A stretch of 64,000 nucleotides of DNA from Klebsiella phage Miami, in the sequence record MT701590.1; one strand, given 5' to 3'. The notes beneath the pieces were generated by a model. That model had not been told where the DNA came from, made no database searches, and was given only the letters and a program-made list of their open reading frames with translations. Positions 3 to 62,776 of this stretch are shown here, one piece after another (position 1 is the stretch's first letter; each line of letters opens with the position of its first letter). The position numbers and the translations under genes are program-made.

Positions 3-2627
3 TGTGAAACGGCCGGATTCTGTTTGGAAGATAACGGAACGTTAATGATGCTCGCCAATGCGTCTGACGGAAAGCACAACGGTCTGTTTTACACCACTAT
101 TGAAAATTGGGATAGCACCAATCCAAAAGTCAGATATACCGGCTATCCTTACCAATGGGGGAATTTGGATTACCGTAAACTCAACGCCATTGTTGAAGGC
201 TCTGGTAAAGACGTGATGATCGTAGGGAACCGTGTTTCTCAGGATTGGTACATTACTCTGACCAAAGGGACCTTCGACCCAGCGAAACACAATCTGCACA
301 AAATCTCTTTCGATACCACCCCTCCTGGGATGTGGGACAATTATGTCGTTAACGAAAGATTCCCTTGGTTCGATATCAGCAAGGTTTTTGTTGCAGGGAA
401 CTATGTTTGGCTGATGTATCTCAACCATCAGTATTTTAGCAATGAGTTGAGGATGGCTAAGGATCTTTATTTTTATCGCATCCCTTTATCAGCCTTTGAT
501 ACTGACGGTCCGTTGGTATTCCAGGCGGTAACTCTGACAAGCGCGCATAACGTTTTCGGGACATTATTCTCTAACGTTAAACCGCTTAGAATGACGGATC
601 CTGTTAAGAAGTCCAACGGGTATTATAACAATAGTTGGTGCAGAACTTCCCTGGATCTAACGTCTTCATTCCAGTGGATAAAATCAGTTATTATCCCGAC
701 AGATTACGATACAACGTCTAACAAGAAGCTGATCTATTTAGAAACTAGAATGCATGACTATTATTATAATGGTTCTGTTTATAGTTTCTATTCTCCGGCC
801 CTGCAGTTCATTTATATCTTTGATCCTGACAATAATACGTTTTTACTCCATCCTGATAGCGGAAGAAACTACCTAATTGATTTGGGGAATACCTCCAATA
901 ATCCCCAGAGAGTAGAGGGAAGAATGGGTAATGGGGATGACTGGGTCAACATAGGTAGGAACCAAAGACCTAGTATCTACGCGATGAATGGCTATATTCT
1001 TAAGTCACAAATAAATCAGACTTACACCACCTTTAAATTAAAAACTGATTTACTCAGTTGGTTCAAAGACCCTTATTCGGGAGCAACGGGTGGGACTAAT
1101 GCTCTGACGGTAGTTAAAAAGTCTTATCCGATGGTAGAGCCCCCTGGCGCGGTTCAATCAAGCTATTTCGATGGCGCTGAAATATATGGAGTTTATGGTC
1201 CCCTTCCATCCAGCTCCACCAACGTCGCGACCAAAATGGGTTTATACCTCAGAACCGGATTGGGGGACTACGCCAATCACCCTGAGATGAGATGGGACAA
1301 CACTAATCTCATGATACGTCTGCCCAGCAACCAGGACTTTAAGATAGCGGGTGGTGGAAACTATGCAAGATGCAGTGTGACCGGTGATGCCGCAGCATTA
1401 ACCGCAGCAGGGACAACGATAGGGTGGACTGGATTCAGCGTTTATGAGGATAGGGGTGTTTTCGATAAATTCACCAACTGGCCCGCTCAGCCAAGTAATC
1501 AGGTTGCTTTACCCGGGAACATCACCTGGGATACAAGTGTTCCTGGAGTAGCGACAGCCCAGGTGAATTCTACAGTAAATTACCCAACCACCATTATCAA
1601 CCAGATTAAAGCGGTGTTGACTAATGGTATCGGGGCGACGAAATATTCGTCGTTTACACTTTACGATTTCACCTATTCCCCGTTTGCGGACGTCTATTCG
1701 GTAGCCACCCTTTTCTATACGAAGCCGGGATCTGCTGGACTGTGGACAAGGTTTATTTTGTTTAAACCTACGGTAACAACGTCCGGTACCGTAAAAACTG
1801 TGACCGCTTATTCCGTTCTGTACAACTCCGGTGAAGTGGTTAACGATGGTCCGAGGTTCTTCGCGAACATTGACATGAGCTATTCTAGAGGATTCGACAC
1901 TTATCCCATAGTGGAAGTCTATGTCAATCGAACCACCGGGATCCATTATTACAACATTTATCCGGGCGTTTGTTTCTATCCGGCAGGAAGTACTGGGGCG
2001 TACGCGGTTTCTTATATCGTACAGTCTCGTATACAGCTACAGCGGGCGACATCCAATAACGCGATTACTGTTACCGAAAACACAACAAGACCTACTTGGT
2101 ATAACGACGAATATTACGTTACCATGATTCCTAAGGTAGGGAGGGTCACTGTTTACGGCATTGATGTGCTAACTGAGATGGCGAATACTGGATCGATCGC
2201 AACAGTAAATGGAACGCGATATGTGACCGCTCACACTTATCCGGCGGATAACTGGTATGTGTATTTTACCAATGCGATTAACGTAACGATAGAAGGCGGC
2301 AGTTATCTCATGCCGACGGGCAGTATATCACTTTACGACATTGTAAGTAATCCCGTTGATAAGACGTTCTACGTTTATATCAGGTTGAACGGAACCAAAG
2401 CGGAATATTTCGTTACTACCAAAAAGCTTTACGTTTCTAGCAAAATGTTGTTTGTTGCAACGATAACGACTAACGATAAAGGGATCAGCAGCATCGATCT
2501 TCTCCAACCGATGATGGTGGGGGATTTGGTTCTCTCTAACGTACGTCGTGGTCAAGCAATTCCTGTTGTGGACGGGTCGCTGGGTCAAGAAGCAACTGTG
2601 GTATGGAAACGCAGCCAAGATAATTAA
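3..2627 (+). CDS. large virion structural protein, 5' end outside window (fibre/baseplate-associated candidate)
   Basis: The reading frame is open from nt 3 and the first in-frame start in the track is a TTG at 24, so the gene probably begins upstream. 867 aa rich in S/T/N/Y/G, typical of phage fibre or baseplate proteins. It sits directly upstream of a T4-type fibre gene. Confidence 0.5.
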   Translation, partial: CETAGFCLEDNGTLMMLANASDGKHNGLFYTTIENWDSTNPKVRYTGYPYQWGNLDYRKLNAIVEGSGKDVMIVGNRVSQDWYITLTKGTFDPAKHNLHKISFDTTPPGMWDNYVVNERFPWFDISKVFVAGNYVWLMYLNHQYFSNELRMAKDLYFYRIPLSAFDTDGPLVFQAVTLTSAHNVFGTLFSNVKPLRMTDPVKKSNGYYNNSWCRTSLDLTSSFQWIKSVIIPTDYDTTSNKKLIYLETRMHDYYYNGSVYSFYSPALQFIYIFDPDNNTFLLHPDSGRNYLIDLGNTSNNPQRVEGRMGNGDDWVNIGRNQRPSIYAMNGYILKSQINQTYTTFKLKTDLLSWFKDPYSGATGGTNALTVVKKSYPMVEPPGAVQSSYFDGAEIYGVYGPLPSSSTNVATKMGLYLRTGLGDYANHPEMRWDNTNLMIRLPSNQDFKIAGGGNYARCSVTGDAAALTAAGTTIGWTGFSVYEDRGVFDKFTNWPAQPSNQVALPGNITWDTSVPGVATAQVNSTVNYPTTIINQIKAVLTNGIGATKYSSFTLYDFTYSPFADVYSVATLFYTKPGSAGLWTRFILFKPTVTTSGTVKTVTAYSVLYNSGEVVNDGPRFFANIDMSYSRGFDTYPIVEVYVNRTTGIHYYNIYPGVCFYPAGSTGAYAVSYIVQSRIQLQRATSNNAITVTENTTRPTWYNDEYYVTMIPKVGRVTVYGIDVLTEMANTGSIATVNGTRYVTAHTYPADNWYVYFTNAINVTIEGGSYLMPTGSISLYDIVSNPVDKTFYVYIRLNGTKAEYFVTTKKLYVSSKMLFVATITTNDKGISSIDLLQPMMVGDLVLSNVRRGQAIPVVDGSLGQEATVVWKRSQDN

Positions 2628-2672
2628 TCGTTTTCACACGGGGGAGTAACCCTCCCCCTAAGAGGTCAGATA

Positions 2673-5600
2673 ATGATCATTTTAGATGAAACCATTCCTC
2701 CTAATGGTCAAGAGGATGAGCGCTTCGGTCTTTTACTTTACGCGTTAACCGACTACGGGATTAAAAGGGAGTTACAACACGTCGCCAGTGTGGCGGTGTT
2801 GACCGATAAAGTTGCCGAAGCGAATGCTAAGATGACATCGGTCAGCTCAGCGGTAAACGATGCTCTTGACGCCCACATTGCGACAAAAGGCCCCATCCAT
2901 GGGGAGACCAAGGAAACGATAGGTCTGGGTCTTGTTGACAATTTACGGACAGCCACGTTAGAAGAACATGTTGACGGTAGCGACGACCTGTTCTGTACTC
3001 CTGCTGGAGTAAAATACGCGGCTCAGTTTTTGGTTGAACCTGATTACACCGGGTTTATTCCACAGACTGTACTCCCTATTGCTTATTTCAAAAGACTGAC
3101 TGGGGATCTGAGCATTAACTCAATCTCTTTCAGTCCATGGACTCAGAGTAATAAGAAAGGTAACCTGTACATCACAGACGGTGCTTATTACGTCAGCTTG
3201 TTAAGTAAGAACGGCGGCGGGGTTAATTACCTGAGTGATCTTTTAACATCAAGGGATTTGATGTACTTCACACCTAGTGGCGGTACGATTGTACCTAAAC
3301 TGGCATACGGCTGGAACGCTAAGACGGGATACCAAACCCTGAGTGATGGTTCGAAACAGCTTACCTTTTTCGATTACACTCATAATGGCACTGGTGGGGA
3401 GTTCGCTCTTAATTTTTCGGGGTCTGTAACAGGCGACTATCTGTCGACCTTATTCGATCCTTTACTCGACACGTCTTCTTTAATAGGCGGGCTACGCTTA
3501 ACTCAGGCTGGATTAAATGTCACACTGACGACCATTACCCAGCCAGATGAGTCGGTCGCAACGCTACTGGTGGACAACACTACCGGTTTCAGTTTTAACG
3601 CCACGGGACCGAAGGGAACGGTTAGAACAGGGACGATTAATAACCTCATTCCTTTAGCCGACTTCATCACGGTAACTGACGCTACGGCGGTTACAATTGA
3701 CCCGACCTACACAGCCATTGACCAAACCCACGGCTATGGGAATATGGAATGGGAGGTTAAAGGGAAATCTGCGATTCTTTACACAGATGCTATCCTGAGG
3801 ACAACATTCCAAGGAGTCGTTAAGAAGATCGTCGCCAGAATAGCGTTAAGGTTGACGATAAGTGGGTCCACTTACACGATCGCTCCCTTATCTCAAGTGA
3901 GTATGGCGACGATAACTGCTGGCGCTGTTGCTGTATCCGGGAACATCCTTTTTGAAGAAGAAATTGATGGCGCTTTACACCCAGTTTACGGAAAAGGTCC
4001 GTTCTTAAGCGAGGGCGGGCACGCTACGTCAATGGCTTCCAACCAAAGCTTCTTCTTAAGGGCATTTACTCACGATCTAACCAGCCTCGTTGACCTGGCT
4101 AAAAACTATCACGAAACCCTTTCTCTCTCTGGAGAGTATACAAAGGAATATCCGGGTAGTTTTGCGGCTCCGATAGGGGTGAACATTAAACGCTTCATAC
4201 CGTTTAATAGTACCGCTTCGGGGTTAAAGGTTTTAACCTATCCGATGGCCAATACCTCAGAAGACTACTACGGGGTATTAAGTTGGGATAGTCCTCAGAT
4301 TCTCCAGTCGTCTAAGAACAAGCCGCTGTATTATCGGTTCAAGCAGGCGAGCTCTTTAACCAACTTTACATTAAGCTCCACCATACCGACCAGGCTGATT
4401 GTTAACTCCGGTGCTGATGGCAGCGTTACTGTGAGGGGGTTGAGTTTCTTACGCAGTGATTATACCGCCGGTACGGGTAAACTGGTCATTACGGAGAATG
4501 AGGTTAAAGCGTCTGAAACTTGGGCGTTGGACGCCGACTCCATTACCACAATGGAATCTATCTTGTCGACGTTCTCCACCAGAAGCCACACAGCGTATAC
4601 TTCTGCTGGGGTGGCGTACGACGCAAGTAAACAGTCAATGAGTTGGTCTGTTGGGATTTTGACGACCTCTGACGACATTACCGCAGTAACAAGATGTGTT
4701 GTGTTATTATCGGATGGTTGCGGTTATGTGGGGTGTCAAATCGTTCCTACGACGCCTAATAGCGGAACAAGAACGTTTACCATCAACAGAGCGTCATTGG
4801 GCACACTGACATCCATGACTTTTGGGATGGCTGCTGTTCCTGATTTTAGTGCGGCCGAATATCTGACACCGCCGGCGTACAACGACATAATGGTATTAAC
4901 TCGTTCCGATAATTCGTTAGAGATCGCATTTAATAACGCGTTTAAAACGAAATACGGGATGGCGTCATTCTTATATTCCGGAACAACGCTGGCACTGGAT
5001 AAAATAGAAAATCCAAGAGTCAGTGTAGGGAATTTCCCCATCATCGGGAAACGTGGGTGTTGCCCTATCAGTATTCCTTACTACGGTATTTTCAGGATGA
5101 CGGATAACGAGGAGGAGTTTTTCAACGCCAACCTCAATCGTTATCTTAACCAGTATGGCGATTTAACGGACGACGTAGTCACTATGGGGGGTTCGGATTA
5201 TCACCTAATCAGAATCCCTGCCGGGACCAAAGTGTTCTTGGATGGTCGAGAATTCCAAATGATCTCCGGTTTAGTCGTCTACGCTCAGGTAGGAGTGACG
5301 TCGTATATTTATCTCACAGCGGCGGCCGATAACGTGATGGCCGAGGCCAGAACCGTAAAATCAGAACCTGCCGTTGATGAAATCATTTACGCAGTAATGG
5401 ATGAAGCAGGGAATCTCGTTATCAACGACACGTACACTGTCATTGATGGGTTCGCGGTATCCTACACTCGTCAGGGTAGTTCTATCCCGTATACTACGGG
5501 TTACCCTATGGATCTTGGCGAAACACTCTTCTTTAAAACAACCTTCGGGGATCCTGATCTTGATGTAATCATGAACTCAACCATGCCAGAGTTTGGCGGG

Positions 5601-21162: not shown

Positions 21163-21200
21163 CCTACTCCTACTCCCGTAATAGGGAGTAGGAGTACTCT
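21163..21200 (+). repeat. repeat-family hairpin copy 1 (terminator-like)
   Basis: CCTACTCCTACTCCC-GTAATA-GGGAGTAGGAGTA, then TTTATTTTT 10 nt downstream. Confidence 0.6.
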
Positions 21201-21247
21201 TATGAATTTATTTTTAATTAATTAATGTTAAACCTAGGATAGTATAG

Positions 21248-21255
21248 TATAAATA
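21248..21255 (+). promoter_or_regulatory. TATAAATA box (T4-late-promoter-like) at the head of a ~270-nt leader
   Basis: Exact TATAAATA inside GTATAGTATAAATAGC. The only long non-coding gap in the window (about 21202-21530) follows it. Confidence 0.3.
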
Positions 21256-21530
21256 GCTCTAGCGTAATATATTAGGCCTTCGGCCTAAAGGGCTAGGGTA
21301 AGTCAATTCGTTCGTTTCAGCATCAATCAAGGTATTCGCTACGCTCATACTTTCTTATGCTTACACTCACCCATGCAACCTGGAGAGAAACCCCGACTGA
21401 ACAAAGTTGTTTATTCCTTCTCAGGGGAATAAACAGTTCGTCGGCTAAAGACATAGGATGTTTTATGATCAGTAAAGAAATACGATAATCTAAACTTATT
21501 AGTTCAAACACTGTAATCTAGGAGATAACC

Positions 21531-21647
21531 ATGAATATCGTAATGCCATTAAAGTTACTCGGAGGGTTACTTATCCTGGGGGTGAGTTTTGGATTACTGG
21601 TTTATCTCATTGTTAAACTCTCCGTTAAAATGGCGTATAAAAAATGA
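21531..21647 (+). CDS. small hydrophobic peptide (38 aa), not in the ORF track
   Basis: Excellent RBS taggagataacc-ATG. Sequence MNIVMPLKLLGGLLILGVSFGLLVYLIVKLSVKMAYKK. The stop overlaps the ATG of the next gene (ATGA). Confidence 0.45.
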   Translation: MNIVMPLKLLGGLLILGVSFGLLVYLIVKLSVKMAYKK

Positions 21648-22111
21648 GTGAAGAAGAGCTGTCATTAGGTTATATTTCGGTTAAAGTCATTCCCACTCAG
21701 GAAGGGATTCTTAAAGATAAGGTGTTGGATGCAGGCTGTCTTCCGTTAGATGAAGGGTCGTACCACGCTACGCTTATTTTTGATATTCATCAGGATGGTG
21801 TCATTCCCAACGTACCTATGATTCCTGAAAAGATCTTCGAGGGAAAGGTTATTGGAATCAAGGAACTCGGAGAGCGTAAAGGAGATATTATCTCAGCCGT
21901 TGTACTCGAACTGGATTCTCCTGAACTGATAGAAGAACACGATCGGTTAATACAATGTGGGTATGGTCATTCCTATCCGGATTACATCCCCCATATTTCG
22001 CTCGCTTACAAGGTCACAGAAGAGCAAATGGAAGATCTCAAACGACAGTGTGAGTCGCTTATTGGTAAAACGTTCTACTTATCCGGAGAAAGCATCGACT
22101 GGATAGATTAA
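21644..22111 (+). CDS. 2H phosphoesterase (LigT/Acb1-like cyclic-nucleotide phosphodiesterase candidate)
   Basis: Two H-x-T/S-x motifs in hydrophobic context, YHATLIF (H41) and PHISLAY (H117). 155 aa. Size and His spacing are typical of 2H-family enzymes, including the phage anti-CBASS Acb1. Confidence 0.6.
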   Translation: MSEEELSLGYISVKVIPTQEGILKDKVLDAGCLPLDEGSYHATLIFDIHQDGVIPNVPMIPEKIFEGKVIGIKELGERKGDIISAVVLELDSPELIEEHDRLIQCGYGHSYPDYIPHISLAYKVTEEQMEDLKRQCESLIGKTFYLSGESIDWID

Positions 22112-22124
22112 GAGGTAAAGGGGT

Positions 22125-22553
22125 ATGTCTGATAAACTTACTGTATCACTTTTTAAGCTTATAAAAAACCACACTGGGTTAACGTTAAAGGAAGGCGAAT
22201 TCTCTTTAACGGGAGAAAGACCCTTTTGGTTCAGAATACCTCCTTTTCCCCTTAACCCCAGTTCAAGAGAGAGATTGAGAGATCTCTTTCAAGATAACTT
22301 TGATGTGACTGTAGTTGATTATGTTGACGATTACCAGATCATATTCAGCCAAATTGAACCAACAACTTCTCGTCGTATAAAACGCGTCAGGAACATCCTA
22401 GATGTGTTAGAAAGAGAGTACGGTAGAAACTGTCTCAGACCAGAAACCGGTAGAATCTTGAGCGGATATTACTCTACTCATAAAGACAGAATAGAACAGG
22501 AAGAACTTGCTTATAATAAAAAGATTTTAAATGAAGCGTTACGAAGACGCTAA
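22125..22553 (+). CDS. hypothetical protein
   Basis: 142-aa ORF, RBS gaggtaaagggg, basic C-terminus. Confidence 0.5.
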   Translation: MSDKLTVSLFKLIKNHTGLTLKEGEFSLTGERPFWFRIPPFPLNPSSRERLRDLFQDNFDVTVVDYVDDYQIIFSQIEPTTSRRIKRVRNILDVLEREYGRNCLRPETGRILSGYYSTHKDRIEQEELAYNKKILNEALRRR

Positions 22554-22594
22554 TCTTATGCGATATTTTTAATCTTAAAACGTGGGGTGGGTAA

Positions 22595-22918
22595 ATGACG
22601 TACGATGAAGTCGAGAAATATCTGGAAATGGGAGAGGCTATCTCTAAGGGTAGTTGGAAAGCTAACGAAGCGGTTTATTTAGAGCCGACAACGTTACTTA
22701 ATCCAGCTCACTATCCTGAGTGTTTAAAAGCCGCAGGTATTAACTCCCTTTTGAGAGTCGATCGGCATTTAGTGCGTGTTACCGCGAGTAACACTGTTGA
22801 GCGTTTTATTCCCAACATTGTAGAAAGAAAAGAAAACGATTGGTACGTTAAGAGTTACACCTTCGAACAAAATAAAGCATTGCCAGAACACAATCAAACC
22901 CAAGAAGAAGCTGCATAA
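22595..22918 (+). CDS. DUF2829-like small protein (Tad2-like anti-Thoeris sponge candidate)
   Basis: N-terminal MTYDEVEKYLEMGEAISKGSWK matches my recollection of the DUF2829 start (M-x-F-x-EAL-x-x-L-K-x-G-K-x-V-x-R-x-G-W). A C-terminal ENDWYV-type motif is also present. 107 aa. Followed by a C12 tract and a strong terminator. Confidence 0.5.
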   Translation: MTYDEVEKYLEMGEAISKGSWKANEAVYLEPTTLLNPAHYPECLKAAGINSLLRVDRHLVRVTASNTVERFIPNIVERKENDWYVKSYTFEQNKALPEHNQTQEEAA

Positions 22919-22923
22919 TAACA

Positions 22924-22935
22924 CCCCCCCCCCCC
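22924..22935. repeat. homopolymeric C12 tract (intergenic)
   Basis: Twelve consecutive C immediately after the stop of the DUF2829-like gene and before the terminator hairpin. Confidence 0.8.
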
Positions 22936-22950
22936 TACACTTAGATTTTA

Positions 22951-22985
22951 ACCAGGAGAGGCGTAAGCCTCTCCTGGTTTATTTT
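22951..22985 (+). terminator. rho-independent terminator
   Basis: 12-bp stem ACCAGGAGAGGC/GCCTCTCCTGGT with loop GTAA, followed by TTTATTTT. Confidence 0.6.
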
Positions 22986-23053: not shown

Positions 23054-23269
23054 ATGAATGGTCTTTTTGGAACAGGTTGTTTGCTGTTAGGTGCTGCGGT
23101 GTATTTCTTCCTGAAGTACCTGGAACTGCGTAAAGATTTTAAAGAGAATAAGATTAAAGACAAGGGTCGGGCGTCTGGGTATAAAAATGCCTATTTCTCT
23201 TTAACCATTTGCGTTTTGGGCCTGGGCGTCTTTTTAATGGTTAATGGGACTCTGTTGGAGATCAGATAA
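23054..23269 (+). CDS. small two-TM membrane protein
   Basis: 71 aa, with two hydrophobic helices flanking a basic loop. Confidence 0.45.
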   Translation: MNGLFGTGCLLLGAAVYFFLKYLELRKDFKENKIKDKGRASGYKNAYFSLTICVLGLGVFLMVNGTLLEIR

Positions 23270-23736
23270 TGGATATCGTTATGCTGACCGACGCAGAAAC
23301 AGTTTTGGATGTCGTCGATGCAGAGGAATACTATCTTCCTACGGGAATTATGCGGCATTGGATACAGATGGCTATCCGAAGAGGGCCTGGGCATTGTAGG
23401 GCATTTTGGTTTGAAGGTGGGATCTTTGTTTTGACCAAAATACCCTTAACGAATAGTAATACCTGGAACGCTTCGATTTGGATTTCTGAAGATTACAGGC
23501 GAAAAGGACTGGCCAAGCGAATAACCGTTTTGGCTTTGGATATGTTCAGACTGGCTAACGCGACTCTACGTTTCCATCCTTGGGATCAGCGTAGCGTTGC
23601 ATTCTTTTCTAATTTGGTTAACGAGGGATTGTTGACCGGGAAGAATTTTGGGGATATTGGGTCAAGACGTCTTTTATCTTCTGAACTCCTTAAAGACCCT
23701 GAGACTTTTACATCCCAGCGCGTTGAGTTAGTTTAA
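23269..23736 (+). CDS. GNAT-family acetyltransferase-like protein
   Basis: ISEDYRRKGLAKRI resembles GNAT motif A (R-x-x-G-x-A). Confidence 0.5.
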   Translation: MDIVMLTDAETVLDVVDAEEYYLPTGIMRHWIQMAIRRGPGHCRAFWFEGGIFVLTKIPLTNSNTWNASIWISEDYRRKGLAKRITVLALDMFRLANATLRFHPWDQRSVAFFSNLVNEGLLTGKNFGDIGSRRLLSSELLKDPETFTSQRVELV

Positions 23737-23760: not shown

Positions 23761-24141
23761 ATGGACCGTAACGAATTAGCGATTATTCTCATCGATCAAC
23801 TTAACAAATTCCTTTACCCTAAACTTGAGAAAACCAATATGACGAAATTTTGTCTATTGGGAACGCTGAGCCTTGAGGTCGTCACCGGTCAGTTTTATGA
23901 TCATAAAACATGCGTGGGGTCGGAGGATATCCTTGCATTGCTCAAAGAGCACGGGATTAACAACGACGGATTCTTAAGCGTAGAAAAACGACTATCGGCC
24001 TTTGGCGACATTTTGACATCCTATTCCTATAGAGTTCTAGGGGATCGTTATGGCGATTCTTTTGTTACTGTGAATTTCAATTTGAATTTAACCAATCTTA
24101 ACATGCTTGAGTTTACTAACGAACTAGCGCGGTACGAATAA
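23761..24141 (+). CDS. hypothetical protein
   Basis: 126-aa ORF, RBS agaggtaataaa. Confidence 0.5.
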   Translation: MDRNELAIILIDQLNKFLYPKLEKTNMTKFCLLGTLSLEVVTGQFYDHKTCVGSEDILALLKEHGINNDGFLSVEKRLSAFGDILTSYSYRVLGDRYGDSFVTVNFNLNLTNLNMLEFTNELARYE

Positions 24142-24186: not shown

Positions 24187-24927
24187 ATGAACATCAATCA
24201 GTTGCCAGAGAACCATCACGTCATTTCTTCTATGGTCAATCCGTTTGACGCTAATGAGGAATTGTTCTTCGTTACCCATGCTCGTGTAAATACTTACTTG
24301 GATCTCGATGTTTGGTTCTGCGATATGGGTACCGGGGATATGAGAGTTGTCGAGCCCTACGGCAAAGTATCCGACGTTCGGTTGCATGATTACATGGAAA
24401 GACATGTTGCGAACAATTCGGATCAATTTCTTTATCCCACCGTGATCGCCCCGCTGAGTTTGCAGGATACCGTTCTAAAGGTGGAGGGTATTCTCGGTGG
24501 TGATAAACTTAACCCATTTCCGTTATCTGGAAGCGGCGCCGACCCGATGACCGGATGGTACACCGACCCTCACGGAGTGAAAAGGAATATTCGAAAATTA
24601 CCGGATATTTTTGATTTATTAAAGGATGAACAACAAGAAAACACTCACCCTCTCGAAAGTACTAACACCAGTAAATCCCTTCATCGCCCTTCGCCAGAGG
24701 AAATATCAGCTGGAGCGACTAAGGAGTACGAAGCGAGGAAAGCGGCTTTAAAAGAACTTCTGGAAACCGGAGGTGAAATTAAAGCCATTCCTAAAATTGT
24801 TCATTACACTAAATTGGTGAGTTACGATGAAAAGGCTCATATCCCTACTCCAAGAAAAGGGAAGCTCAAGAAACCAAACCATAATCTTAACGCGATCATG
24901 GGGTTGTTAGCGAGGACCAAGAAGTGA
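24187..24927 (+). CDS. hypothetical protein
   Basis: 246-aa ORF preceded by TTTTAGGAAACGCCATCATG. Confidence 0.55.
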   Translation: MNINQLPENHHVISSMVNPFDANEELFFVTHARVNTYLDLDVWFCDMGTGDMRVVEPYGKVSDVRLHDYMERHVANNSDQFLYPTVIAPLSLQDTVLKVEGILGGDKLNPFPLSGSGADPMTGWYTDPHGVKRNIRKLPDIFDLLKDEQQENTHPLESTNTSKSLHRPSPEEISAGATKEYEARKAALKELLETGGEIKAIPKIVHYTKLVSYDEKAHIPTPRKGKLKKPNHNLNAIMGLLARTKK

Positions 24928-25298
24928 CAGAAGCGTATCAGAGTTGGGCTGCTGATTTTAAAAAATCCGTGGGTCGACTCAAGGAAGTAAAATCGGCCGG
25001 CTACGGTAAATATCGTTTAGGTGTGCAGGATCCGCCAGGAAAGCCCTACGTTCTGGTGGAAGTAAAAACTTCCGATTGTGCGTACACGCCCAACTATTCG
25101 TTGGATCTTGTGAAAACGATTAAGATTCCAAAACCTAAAGGGTTGCGGTTATCGGTAGAACGTCGTATTCGATTAGTAGGGTACCTTTTACAAATCGGCG
25201 TGTTTGATTTACTCACTCAGGCAGAATGGGGGATGGTCTTTAATGTCTCTCGTGGGTCCATCTGGCATTATAAGAAACAGTACGAGGAATCGTTATGA
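24924..25298 (+). CDS. hypothetical protein
   Basis: ATGA overlap with the upstream gene. Confidence 0.5.
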   Translation: MTEAYQSWAADFKKSVGRLKEVKSAGYGKYRLGVQDPPGKPYVLVEVKTSDCAYTPNYSLDLVKTIKIPKPKGLRLSVERRIRLVGYLLQIGVFDLLTQAEWGMVFNVSRGSIWHYKKQYEESL

Positions 25299-25609
25299 AG
25301 ATTTATGCTGTAGTTAGTAAGGAAACCGATAATGTGATCGCTCAGTTTCTCGATCACGGGACGGAGAAAGTCAAGTTCAATGGGATCAAATTGGGGATCT
25401 TGGATCAACAGGTTCATCCAGATGAAAGAGAACTGCTGAAAGTTGTAGAGGTTTATCTTTCGTCGTCAAAAGGAAAGATGGATCAGACGAAACAACTCGA
25501 TCCAGACACGTTTATTGTTGAGACGCTCAGTTATTATGAGGAGGTCGATTTTGTCTATCTATCTCGTAACCCTGAGCATGACATCGCTCTGTGCACACCA
25601 AAGGAATAA
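25295..25609 (+). CDS. hypothetical protein
   Basis: ATGA overlap with the upstream gene. Confidence 0.5.
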   Translation: MKIYAVVSKETDNVIAQFLDHGTEKVKFNGIKLGILDQQVHPDERELLKVVEVYLSSSKGKMDQTKQLDPDTFIVETLSYYEEVDFVYLSRNPEHDIALCTPKE

Positions 25610-37256: not shown

Positions 37257-37291
37257 ACTCCTACTCCCGATAAGGGAGTAGGAGTTATTTT
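37257..37291 (+). repeat. repeat-family hairpin copy 2 (terminator)
   Basis: AACTCCTACTCCC-GATAA-GGGAGTAGGAGTT followed by ATTTTAAA. After phoH. Confidence 0.65.
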
Positions 37292-37337: not shown

Positions 37338-37805
37338 ATGAACCTCATGTACGACAATTACTACGGAAAAGAAATACTTGGATTGGGTTTAGAGGGTGAA
37401 GTCATCACAATGCTAAATTTGGCGATGGCTGATATTAATCACTTCGCTAAGAAAAGTATCGCTAAAGATATCAACCCCTATCCGTTCAATCTGGAAGATT
37501 TTAAGCACAACCGTTTTAACGAACACTACTTCCTCGTTTTTGATGGGAAGAAAATAGTGTCGATTCTATCCGTCGTTTACGCTTTAGAGCATCATCTCAA
37601 AATAGCTAAAATCTTTAACGTTTATACGTTACCGGAGTATCGCCATAAAGGGCTTGCTAAACGCAACCTAATCGCCGCTATCGTGTCGGCAAGATCAAAT
37701 GGGTACATTGTGCAGTTAAACGTTTACAGGTCTAATAAAGCCGCTCAGAGGCTTTACAAGAGCCTTAAATTTAAACCCGTCGAATACACTATGCAGCTCG
37801 GTTAA
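37338..37805 (+). CDS. GNAT-family N-acetyltransferase
   Basis: GNAT motif A YRHKGLAKRNL. 155 aa. Confidence 0.65.
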   Translation: MNLMYDNYYGKEILGLGLEGEVITMLNLAMADINHFAKKSIAKDINPYPFNLEDFKHNRFNEHYFLVFDGKKIVSILSVVYALEHHLKIAKIFNVYTLPEYRHKGLAKRNLIAAIVSARSNGYIVQLNVYRSNKAAQRLYKSLKFKPVEYTMQLG

Positions 37806-41436: not shown

Positions 41437-41712
41437 ATGAAATTTACTTCTGCTGTTGCAAAACTCAAACCCGGTTACGGGATTCAGTGCACCGATTGGA
41501 ATGGTGCTAATCAATTTGTTTTTGATGCCTCTTTGACCATGTCTCTCGTTGAAGCACGCAAGCAGGGCTTCCCCGGCCCGGTTAAACTGAAACCGGTTTA
41601 CGTGTTGCATAACGCTAAAGGTGAGCTGCAACCTGGTTGGGTGCCTTCTCAGGGTGATCTGCGCAACGAGAACTGGGTCGTTGTCAAAATCAAAGACGCG
41701 CTGGCGAAATGA
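41437..41712 (+). CDS. hypothetical protein
   Basis: 91-aa ORF, divergent from the inverted tailspike gene. Confidence 0.5.
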   Translation: MKFTSAVAKLKPGYGIQCTDWNGANQFVFDASLTMSLVEARKQGFPGPVKLKPVYVLHNAKGELQPGWVPSQGDLRNENWVVVKIKDALAK

Positions 41713-42035
41713 ACTACCATCTCTTCTTCGTCGTAGGATTGACGGTTTGTTTGATCGTTTTTAGTGTCTTTGACGATTACTACACGAAAAGAGCGATTGG
41801 ACTTAAAGGTTACGTTCCTTTCTGGGCCGTCGCAGTAATTCCAGGAAAATCCAAACTTAGTCTTAAACTGATTAAGTTTAAGATGGCGTGTTATGTTTTA
41901 GTTTGGATTGCGTGGCTGGTCATTCTATCATCTCCGTTACCTTTTCTTGTTGCGTTGATGATGACGATCTTGGGATTACTCAGTTGTATCATGTTAGGAT
42001 CGTTGCTTCACAACATCGCTCAATCTAAAAAATAA
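41709..42035 (+). CDS. membrane protein, hypothetical
   Basis: Three hydrophobic helices. ATGA overlap with the upstream gene. Confidence 0.5.
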   Translation: MNYHLFFVVGLTVCLIVFSVFDDYYTKRAIGLKGYVPFWAVAVIPGKSKLSLKLIKFKMACYVLVWIAWLVILSSPLPFLVALMMTILGLLSCIMLGSLLHNIAQSKK

Positions 42036-46811: not shown

Positions 46812-47110
46812 TGGAAACGTTAAAACTAGCACATAAATCTGGGAAGATGGATGTCTACACTTTTTCTTTTGGGACTAAATCCTTCTCGATTAGAACCACA
46901 CAACCTTTAACGAGGATGAATAGACTAAATAAATTAATCGAATATTTGAGTTCGTCTAATTCAGCAGTTAAAATTTCTCCCAAGGATGTTTGCGATCTTT
47001 ATAAACTTCGCGTAATGACAGATGATGGGAAGAACATTAGATTACTATTAACCATTAAAACTATGGTTGAGAAACTCATAGTCAAATTAGAGAAGGATAA
47101 CCAAAAATGA
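46811..47110 (+). CDS. hypothetical protein
   Basis: 99-aa ORF, start overlapping the upstream stop. Confidence 0.5.
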   Translation: METLKLAHKSGKMDVYTFSFGTKSFSIRTTQPLTRMNRLNKLIEYLSSSNSAVKISPKDVCDLYKLRVMTDDGKNIRLLLTIKTMVEKLIVKLEKDNQK

Positions 47111-47628
47111 TCATTAGTCTTATTATCGCATTGGACGAAAATAACGTTATTGGTCAAGATGATCATATTCCTTGGAATGAACCAGAGGATATGATGTGGT
47201 TTGTTAATAAAACCCGTCATAAAGCCATCGTAATGGGTCGTAAGACGTTTGATGGATTATCTAACCCATTACCAGATCGTTTGAATATCGTGCTCTCTAA
47301 GGACGGTAAAGATCGCCCTGGAGCCATTACGGCTAAAACACCATGGGATGTTCAGAAAGCGGCTATCGACTCAGGTTATAACGAATTGGTTATTTGTGGC
47401 GGCCCTGGGTTATACGACTACGCGCTGAATAACAATATTGTCGATAAGATTTACCTTACACGGGTTTTGAAAGAACACGAAGGTAACGTTAAATACGAAC
47501 ATCCTCTTTTGGAAGAACTCTTAGGCAGTGATAAAGTTGGTAATCTGTATGCCGATAAGTGGGTTCTGGATCAATTCGTCTCAGCACCGGGTTTGGTGTT
47601 CCGGACCTTAACCAAAGTAAGGAAATAA
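47107..47628 (+). CDS. frd: dihydrofolate reductase
   Basis: MIISLIIALDENNVIGQDDHIPW...IVMGRKTF...LPDRLNIVLS...ICGG matches the DHFR fold motifs (ISLIAA, MGRKT, GG). 173 aa. Confidence 0.85.
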   Translation: MIISLIIALDENNVIGQDDHIPWNEPEDMMWFVNKTRHKAIVMGRKTFDGLSNPLPDRLNIVLSKDGKDRPGAITAKTPWDVQKAAIDSGYNELVICGGPGLYDYALNNNIVDKIYLTRVLKEHEGNVKYEHPLLEELLGSDKVGNLYADKWVLDQFVSAPGLVFRTLTKVRK

Positions 47629-51055: not shown

Positions 51056-51088
51056 ATACTCCTACTCCCGATAAGGGAGTAGGAGTAT
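51056..51088 (+). repeat. repeat-family hairpin copy 3 (terminator-like)
   Basis: ATACTCCTACTCCC-GATAA-GGGAGTAGGAGTAT. The core is identical to copy 2. Confidence 0.6.
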
Positions 51089-51184
51089 AAACCTTATTAT
51101 TTTTTACTTGTATTTATTTATAGATCTTTATTATCAAAGCGTAAACTAAAACAACTGTTGACCTTATATGGTTGTTTTTTCCTA

Positions 51185-62690: not shown

Positions 62691-62722
62691 ATACTCCTAC
62701 GGCGATTAAGCCGTAGGAGTAT
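62691..62722 (+). repeat. repeat-family hairpin copy 4 (variant core)
   Basis: ATACTCCTAC-GGCGATTAAGCC-GTAGGAGTAT. Same outer stem TACTCCTAC/GTAGGAGTA with a different inner stem. Confidence 0.55.
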
Positions 62723-62776
62723 ATTTAAACGGTTATTTTTAGTTATTGAACTTCTCTTCCCTTTTAAGGATTATCT

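Follow-up and report, generated by a model that had tools for sequence, protein, structure and literature searches.

In a 64,000-nucleotide stretch of Klebsiella phage Miami (sequence record MT701590.1; hereafter, the window), four genes on the plus strand, beginning at position 21531 and closed by a strong intrinsic terminator, form a unit that probably serves, at least partly, to neutralise immune signalling by nucleotides. Two of its products carry this reading. ORF1 (open reading frame 1) belongs to the family of Acb1, the phage enzyme that degrades the signals of the cyclic oligonucleotide-based anti-phage signalling system (CBASS), and ORF3 is a highly divergent protein of the DUF2829 family, which includes the signal-binding protein Tad2. 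The orphan ORF2 lies between them, and a 38-residue hydrophobic ORF precedes ORF1. A first-pass annotation, made from the letters of the sequence, had described ORF1, ORF2 and ORF3 as a putative anti-defence locus, and all three ORFs are present as it described them; their coordinates, with those of the other features, are collected in Table 1.

ORF1 belongs to the Acb1 family

Sequence comparison establishes ORF1 as a member of the Acb1 family. On the Pfam profile PF23474 (Acb1), which has a gathering score of 27, it reaches 47.7 bits (E 1.7e-12, profile positions 33-122 of 144), and its relatives in the phages USC-1 and RisingSun score 57.8 and 50.5 bits on the same profile. It also matches PHROG 755, labelled 'RNA ligase' as T4 57B formerly was, with E 6e-24. 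The best sequence matches of ORF1 in PDB are the Acb1 entries 7t26 and 9q2g. Homologues were found by tblastn in 180 phage records, mostly of jumbo phages, KVP40 gp57B being among them, and UniProt names the Miami protein 'Anti-CBASS protein Acb1'. As had been noticed from the sequence, ORF1 has two H-x-[TS] motifs, at H41 (SYHATLI) and H117 (IPHISLA), and these are the only ones. Two such motifs in 155 residues are unremarkable alone; they become significant because the profile matches Acb1.

Acb1 is defined by the 2H fold, the tetrad H44/T46/H113/T115 and aromatic stacking by Y12, W74, F107 and W147; in addition, E141 reads adenine through a contact to N6, and the C-terminus forms an ordered lid (PMC9117128). 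We aligned ORF1 with the Acb1 proteins of FBB1 and of a T4-like phage and with six further homologues. The tetrad residues of ORF1 are H41, T43, H117 and S119, the equivalents of the HxT/HxT pair of Acb1, and the second threonine position, that of S119, is occupied by either Ser or Thr across the family. G9, Y10, H41, T43, G106, H117 and Y122 are invariant in nine Acb1 homologues, including those of FBB1 and the T4-like phage and KVP40 gp57B. The stacking residues Y12 and F107 have their equivalents in Y10 and Y112, while W147 is aligned with W153 in one of two alignments and not in the other.

In comparison with the characterised proteins (T4 gp57B; FBB1 Acb1, PDB 7T26/7T27), ORF1 is of similar size (155 residues against 144-152), shares the N-terminal G-Y, the aromatic counterpart of F107 and the P-D-Y-x-P-H motif, and is likewise carried by a phage beside other candidate counter-defence genes. 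It differs from the T4 type in that the identity in the alignments is only 24-31%, and in belonging to a clade of jumbo phages (Aphroditevirus, RisingSun, EL, OBP); moreover, its C-terminus ends two residues past W153. In GenBank, the Miami protein is made to start at an internal GTG, 26 codons late, which yields 129 residues. This start removes the invariant G9-Y10. The 155-residue version, of which the ATG is coupled to the ORF before it, is to be preferred.

If ORF1 acts as its homologues do, it would cut the cyclic di- and trinucleotides of CBASS (3'3'-cGAMP, that is, cyclic GMP-AMP, as well as cUA and cAAA) at their 3'-5' bonds without a metal, His41 and His117 serving in acid-base catalysis via a 2',3'-cyclic phosphate intermediate. 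Cleavage of these signals would prevent activation of the CBASS effectors. The substrate range is proposed by analogy, and several features of ORF1 speak against carrying it over in full. The stacking residue W74 aligns to L75/G76, i.e. to Leu or Gly. The counterpart of the adenine-reading E141 is S147 in one alignment and D152 in the other, with E149 nearby, and the lid is too divergent to align. We know of no biochemistry for the jumbo-phage clade of Acb1, whose members share 24-37% identity with ORF1 or with the T4 type.

Non-conservation of the W74 and E141 equivalents could be expected if ORF1 were instead a LigT-type RNA 2',3'-cyclic phosphodiesterase or 2'-5' RNA ligase for RNA repair or turnover, e.g. 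one that counters anticodon nucleases; the 2H fold and the HxT/S motifs would be the same, PF13563 (2_5_RNA_ligase2) is matched weakly (E 9e-4), and GenBank labels ORF1 'RNA ligase', but we consider this highly unlikely, as the PF13563 match, of 19.7 bits, stays below the cutoff of 27, compared with 47.7 bits for Acb1, Pfam shows no match to PF02834 and NCBIfam (NCBI's naming library for bacterial and archaeal proteins) none at all, the sole cellular 2H match in PDB has an E value of 0.79, the operon has no RNA ligase or polynucleotide kinase partner, and 'RNA ligase' is the old PHROG and T4 57B name of the protein that was shown to be Acb1 (PMC9117128). Of the two readings that were initially said to fit ORF1 equally well, Acb1 is thus favoured over LigT: the Acb1 profile passes its threshold, that of 2_5_RNA_ligase2 fails its own, and the best PDB matches are Acb1.

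ORF3 and its relation to DUF2829 and Tad2

Comparisons of profiles and structures support homology of ORF3 to DUF2829/Tad2 at the family level, in agreement with the DUF2829 call of the first-pass annotation. ORF3 starts with MTYDEVEKYLEMGEAISKGSWK and is built of a DUF2829/Tad2-like domain (residues 1-86) and a 21-residue acidic/polar tail. When a profile of the ORF3 family was compared with PDB, the top seven matches were all Tad2/AcrIIA7 chains (8kbi, 8v3e, 9eib, 9kzr, 8wjd, 8sme, 8wje), aligned end to end with E values of 5.5e-4 to 7e-3. A Foldseek search of PDB with an AlphaFold2 (AF2) model of ORF3 gave Tad2 for all of the best 24 matches (E 2.5e-4 to 4e-3, template modelling score 0.45-0.62), and the first match other than Tad2 had E 0.19, an approximately 40-fold drop in E value.

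End-to-end alignment over about 86 residues is also obtained with the individual members of the family (SPO1 gp34.65, 8SME; HgmTad2/AcrIIA7, 8KBI; MoTad2, 9EIB; SptTad2, 8WJD; PF11195). Like them, ORF3 is a small phage protein; the motif of the N-terminal helix, M-x-[FY]...L-x-x-G...W, has identical spacing, and the C-terminal D-W is common to all. G13, W21, D82 and W83 are invariant in the ORF3 orthologues, in two metagenomic proteins remotely related to ORF3 (P0009 and P0010) and in four solved Tad2 proteins. On the other hand, ORF3 is only 14-18% identical to the solved proteins, has the C-terminal tail in addition, and differs from Tad2 in the distribution of its homologues, which are confined to the Miami clade and the two metagenomic proteins. 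A phmmer search of 1.84 billion representative proteins returned only the cluster of ORF3 orthologues plus P0009 and P0010 (28% identity), and among 50,697 phage records, tblastn matches were limited to five Miami-group genomes, even to E 1.

Tad2 ligands are held by residues that can be compared directly. In HgmTad2, W21/N22/G23 and S90/T92/D93 contact glyco-cyclic ADP-ribose (gcADPR), and mutating them markedly cuts binding (10.1101/2023.11.15.567273). The segment G-W-N-G-K, kept by all four solved Tad2 homologues that we aligned, reads S-W-K-A-N in ORF3, and the Tad2 motif [PA]-S-x-[TS]-D is P-N-I-V-E. Since the gcADPR-contact motifs are replaced, the designation of ORF3 as Tad2, an anti-Thoeris gcADPR sponge, is unsupported. 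The insert between beta2 and beta5 is short, as in SPO1 Tad2, which makes a cyclic-dinucleotide pocket of the HgmTad2 type unlikely as well. However, Tad2 ligands vary by member, from 3'cADPR, His-ADPR and N7-cADPR to cUMP/cCMP and cyclic dinucleotides (10.1101/2025.08.24.671296), and given this plasticity of the family, a sponge role is still the best guess for ORF3. Most likely, the protein would oligomerise and sequester a small signal derived from nucleotides. With a pocket unlike that of every solved Tad2, it would probably bind its ligand otherwise than gcADPR is bound, and the ligand may be a different molecule.

The following points weigh against this reading of ORF3. The score of ORF3 itself on PF11195, 23.4 bits, is just under the gathering score of 25, although the threshold is passed by orthologues (29.9 bits in KPN8, and 25.0 bits) and by the nearest remote relatives, P0009 and P0010 (38.5 and 36.0 bits); a further orthologue scores 18.1 bits. 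The AF2 model was built from a shallow alignment of seven sequences and has a predicted local distance difference test (pLDDT) score of 50.9, and because the model is this poor, sequence accounts in part for the Foldseek result. W21-K22-A23 stands in place of the W-N-G contact, and N74/V76/E77 in place of S-x-T-D. Finally, the literature also describes DUF2829 proteins as the anti-CRISPR AcrIIA7 (10.1101/2023.11.15.567273), so that a sponge role is not guaranteed.

A second DUF2829 gene is found elsewhere in the window. Hidden Markov models made from our own alignments were run over all 614 stop-to-stop ORFs of the window, and a 91-residue ORF 18.5 kb from the operon was detected with E 6e-10 (hmmsearch). 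Its product is a canonical Tad2: it scores 53.2 bits on PF11195, matches Tad2 entries in PDB with E 6e-7 to 1e-4, contains the gcADPR-contact motifs D-W-N-G and W-V-P-S-Q-G-D, and has homologues in 110 phage records. The stop codon of the gene overlaps the start of a 108-residue ORF (41709-42035). ORF3 is 14% identical to this protein, and the pairwise BLASTP match is not significant. The presence of one orthodox Tad2 and one atypical paralogue argues for different ligands and against redundancy; the canonical protein would cover the classical Thoeris signals.

ORF3 could have the DUF2829 fold and yet be no signal sponge, being an AcrIIA7-like anti-CRISPR, a protein-binding inhibitor or a protein with no immune function, in which case its proximity to Acb1 would be coincidental. 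We regard this as rather unlikely, while acknowledging that it would explain the lost ligand-contact motifs and the canonical Tad2 encoded elsewhere, that DUF2829 was first noted in AcrIIA7, that the match of ORF3 to the PHROG 1048 profile (211 residues) is limited to the C-terminal half of the profile, and that the pairing with Acb1 is not conserved beyond the Miami clade. Against it, all DUF2829 proteins characterised so far, AcrIIA7/HgmTad2 included, bind nucleotide signals, and the plasticity of their ligands is wide. The Miami genome has about 300 genes (PMC7844079), from which we estimate the chance of a given gene lying within two genes of Acb1 at ∼1.3%. In addition, ORF3 is under strong purifying selection.

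It seems improbable that ORF3 works as an ordinary Tad2, as a gcADPR (3'cADPR)-binding inhibitor of type I Thoeris. Apart from the family-level homology, the conserved W21, D82 and W83 agree with this reading, as does E77, which conservatively replaces the Asp that contacts the ribose; but ORF3 has K22 and A23 where HgmTad2 holds the diphosphate with N22 and G23, and N74 and V76 at the positions of HgmTad2 S90 and T92. These positions matter for binding, which is markedly reduced in the HgmTad2 mutants W21A/N22A and S90A/T92A/D93A. Furthermore, W-N-G is retained both in the four solved Tad2 homologues and in the canonical gene of the window, next to which a second gcADPR sponge would be redundant.

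Layout and conservation of the four-gene unit

The unit was initially described as a trio of genes forming its own transcription unit between a hairpin and a terminator. Both structures are real, but the unit consists of four same-strand genes, not three, and the hairpin sits ∼330 nt 5' of position 21531, where the unit had been taken to begin. The additional gene, the 38-residue ORF, is kept in the relatives and annotated in KPN8, BUCTxx100 and VB_ZK_P1. The gaps between the genes are small or the genes overlap, and strong hairpins bracket the unit; we would expect the 38-residue membrane ORF and ORF2 to be co-transcribed with ORF1 and ORF3 from a shared promoter.

Table 1. Features of the four-gene unit, its surroundings and the canonical Tad2-like gene
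Feature	Position	Strand	Basis
Upstream boundary hairpin, ACTCCTACTCCC-loop-GGGAGTAGGAGT, member of a four-copy family	21165-21196	+	Folding, sister copies
Intergenic leader, which must hold the promoter of the unit	21197-21530	+	
38-aa hydrophobic ORF, single transmembrane-like segment, MNIVMPLKLLGGLLILGVSFGLLVYLIVKLSVKMAYKK	21531-21647	+	AGGAG ribosome-binding site; stop overlaps ORF1 start (ATGA)
ORF1, 155 aa, Acb1-family 2H phosphodiesterase, Miami gp080 orthologue	21644-22111	+	Pfam PF23474
ORF2, 142 aa, orphan, identical to Miami gp081 (QPB09176)	22125-22553	+	Sequence identity
ORF3, 107 aa, divergent DUF2829/Tad2-like, identical to Miami QPB09177	22595-22918	+	Family profile
Poly-C tract (C12) between ORF3 stop and terminator	22924-22935	+	
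Intrinsic terminator closing the unit	22950-22979	+	Stem/loop folding
Canonical Tad2-like gene, 91 aa, outside the locus	41437-41712	+	PF11195

The terminator has a 13 bp stem with 8 GC pairs followed by a T-run (-26.8 kcal/mol, z -7.5) and is the strongest within 20 kb. Its stem is conserved in all relatives, the variation being confined to the loop. The poly-C tract that precedes it consists of C10, C11 or C12 depending on the relative; this could reflect a slippage hotspot or sequencing ambiguity. The upstream hairpin (13 bp, -25.1 kcal/mol, z -4.7) directly follows the preceding gene, and its sister copies are at 37257-37290 and 51058-51090, with a variant at 62693-62725. Each of the four copies stands right behind a plus-strand stop codon, with folding energies of -25 to -27.5 kcal/mol, and the family probably represents phage-specific terminators or RNA-processing sites. 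The leader contains a second hairpin (21407-21436), which is unique and lies outside the repeat family. A search of Rfam with the 20.5-23.5 kb region returned nothing credible.

In phiKp_32, one of the relatives, the leader contains a 1392-bp TnpB-only element of the IS200/IS605 family (positions 1849-3240 of that sequence), next to ...TTATGCT|TACAC..., and 21359/21360 in the window is the corresponding empty site. The insertion there and the empty site here indicate that mobile TnpB elements are active in the jumbo-phage lineage.

Five jumbo phages of ∼250 kb, phiKp_32, KPN8, YC1, BUCTxx100 and VB_ZK_P1, share 92-96.5% identity with the region. Miami has 124 proteins in common with Erwinia phage RisingSun and 105 with Aphroditevirus Vibrio phages (PMC7844079), and it served as a distant relative in work on the family of nucleus-forming phages that encode chimallin (10.1101/2023.02.24.529968). 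To each of the four genes we applied the ratio of non-synonymous to synonymous substitution rates (dN/dS), calculated with four relatives. The values were 0.03-0.27 for ORF1, 0.06-0.15 for ORF2, 0.0-0.17 for ORF3 and 0.14-0.46 for the 38-residue ORF; hence all four genes are under purifying selection. We also considered that the genes might be spurious ORFs, which is ruled out by the same range of 0.0-0.46. The divergence is uneven. Compared with VB_ZK_P1, ORF1 has 57.5 synonymous and 10.5 non-synonymous differences (dN/dS 0.03) and a synonymous rate (dS) of 1.10, but dS is 0.24 for ORF2 and 0.10 for ORF3. Similarly, a 126-residue ORF at 23761-24141 is 98% identical to its counterparts in KPN8 and phiKp_32 and only 69% identical to those in BUCTxx100 and VB_ZK_P1. 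This unevenness points to recombinational replacement of alleles within the cluster.

ORF2, which had been set down as an unfamiliar gene between the Acb1-like and the DUF2829 genes, is indeed a clade-restricted orphan, as far as homology searches go. Pfam, NCBIfam and PADLOC contain no match to it, the NCBIfam and PADLOC searches being empty for the proteins of the locus in general, and its match in PHROGs is weak (E 0.007). Neither the sequence nor its AF2 model (pLDDT 53.4, from an alignment of only five sequences) has a match in PDB, the latter by Foldseek, and the only BFVD match of the model is the model of the identical Miami protein. Deep searches found no homologues outside the Miami clade. 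By position alone, ORF2 is a candidate anti-defence gene.

The unit as a counter-defence locus

Phage anti-defence islands have been delimited by at least two recognised families within 1 kb on the same strand, and of the anti-defence systems detected in phages, 17.8% have another less than 1 kb away (PMC11724313). ORF1 and ORF3 are two such families; they share a strand within one unit from hairpin to terminator, with 483 nt separating the last position of ORF1 (22111) from the first of ORF3 (22595). With two recognisable counter-defence families so close together and small genes of unassigned function interleaved, the locus resembles known phage islands (PMC11724313), for example that of T4, in which acb1 adjoins ipI. 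The difference is that a pairing of Acb1 with DUF2829 in a chimallin-family jumbo phage is absent from the literature that we searched, and it is seen in the Miami clade only. Acb1, Tad2 and anti-defence islands are all established already, and the locus reveals no new principle.

The first-pass annotation had also proposed that two independent inhibitors of cyclic-nucleotide signalling are co-localised here. Their co-localisation in one unit is plausible; the specific combination of CBASS and Thoeris goes beyond the evidence for ORF3. We therefore keep to the broader reading, that of a unit at least partly directed against nucleotide-based immune signalling through an Acb1 enzyme and a divergent Tad2-fold protein. 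Observations on the unit as a whole that count against this reading concern its promoter and its conservation. A scan for sigma-70 promoters yielded matches at chance level, with no enrichment over shuffled sequences, and a search for 8-mers in the intergenic regions found the hairpin family and no promoter motif for the four-gene unit; thus, the promoter was not identified in these scans. The pairing of Acb1 and DUF2829 is kept throughout the Miami clade, but an annotated DUF2829 neighbour is absent at the Acb1 genes of USC-1, PDCC-1, RisingSun, EL, OBP and KVP40, and no DUF2829 turned up when the neighbours of Acb1 in USC-1 and RisingSun were scanned with Pfam. Conversely, the metagenomic contig with P0009 has the relative of ORF3 without Acb1.

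The same contig places the locus in a wider context. Downstream of its ORF3-like gene, it is syntenic with the window, having homologues of 24187-24927 and 25295-25609, and directly upstream it has a dihydrofolate reductase (DHFR) gene where the window has Acb1 and ORF2; this arrangement of DHFR and the ORF3-like gene is found at contig positions 217-1146. At positions 2419-3441 of the RisingSun sequence used, DHFR is directly upstream of Acb1, whereas the DHFR homologue of the window is far off, at 47107-47628. This suggests that a counter-defence slot 3' of DHFR is variable in this phage group. As the pairing differs between loci, the slot looks variable, as accessory genes for counter-defence would be expected to be.

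Jumbo phages that form a nucleus evade DNA-targeting defences, which makes them attractive for therapy against Klebsiella. Abortive infection based on signalling still stops them, and the locus suggests what the answer of the Miami group may be. One such exposure is to type III CRISPR, in which cA3 activates NucC (10.1101/2022.06.20.496707). T4 Acb1 cleaves cAAA (PMC9117128), and by analogy this activity of Acb1 may be linked to the vulnerability of Miami to cA3-NucC signalling. The locus also supplies an Acb1 from an uncharacterised jumbo-phage clade and, by association, two orphan candidates. The most interesting element is ORF3, the atypical pocket of which makes it a candidate for new ligand specificity. 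A further-reaching possibility, which we hold to be unlikely, is that the ORF3 clade is a DUF2829 sponge retooled for a signal new to Tad2, and/or that ORF2 or the 38-residue ORF is a new anti-defence protein. If so, the phage would carry a layered anti-signalling kit in which the Acb1 nuclease is joined by two Tad2 proteins, one canonical and one atypical, and by a further partner. The kit would be aimed at forms of abortive infection against which the phage nucleus gives no protection, cA3-dependent CBASS and type III CRISPR-NucC among them.

Two minor observations concern the relatives and the neighbourhood of the operon. BUCTxx100 (OR529409.1) is labelled a Stenotrophomonas phage, an unexpected host label, as it has ∼96% nucleotide identity here to the Klebsiella phages of the Miami group. 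Just 3' of the operon, a 155-residue ORF (23269-23736) resembles GNAT-type acetyltransferases weakly (19.8 bits, below the cutoff), and a further GNAT-type acetyltransferase-like gene, also of 155 residues, is found at 37338-37805 with a clear match of 47.5 bits.

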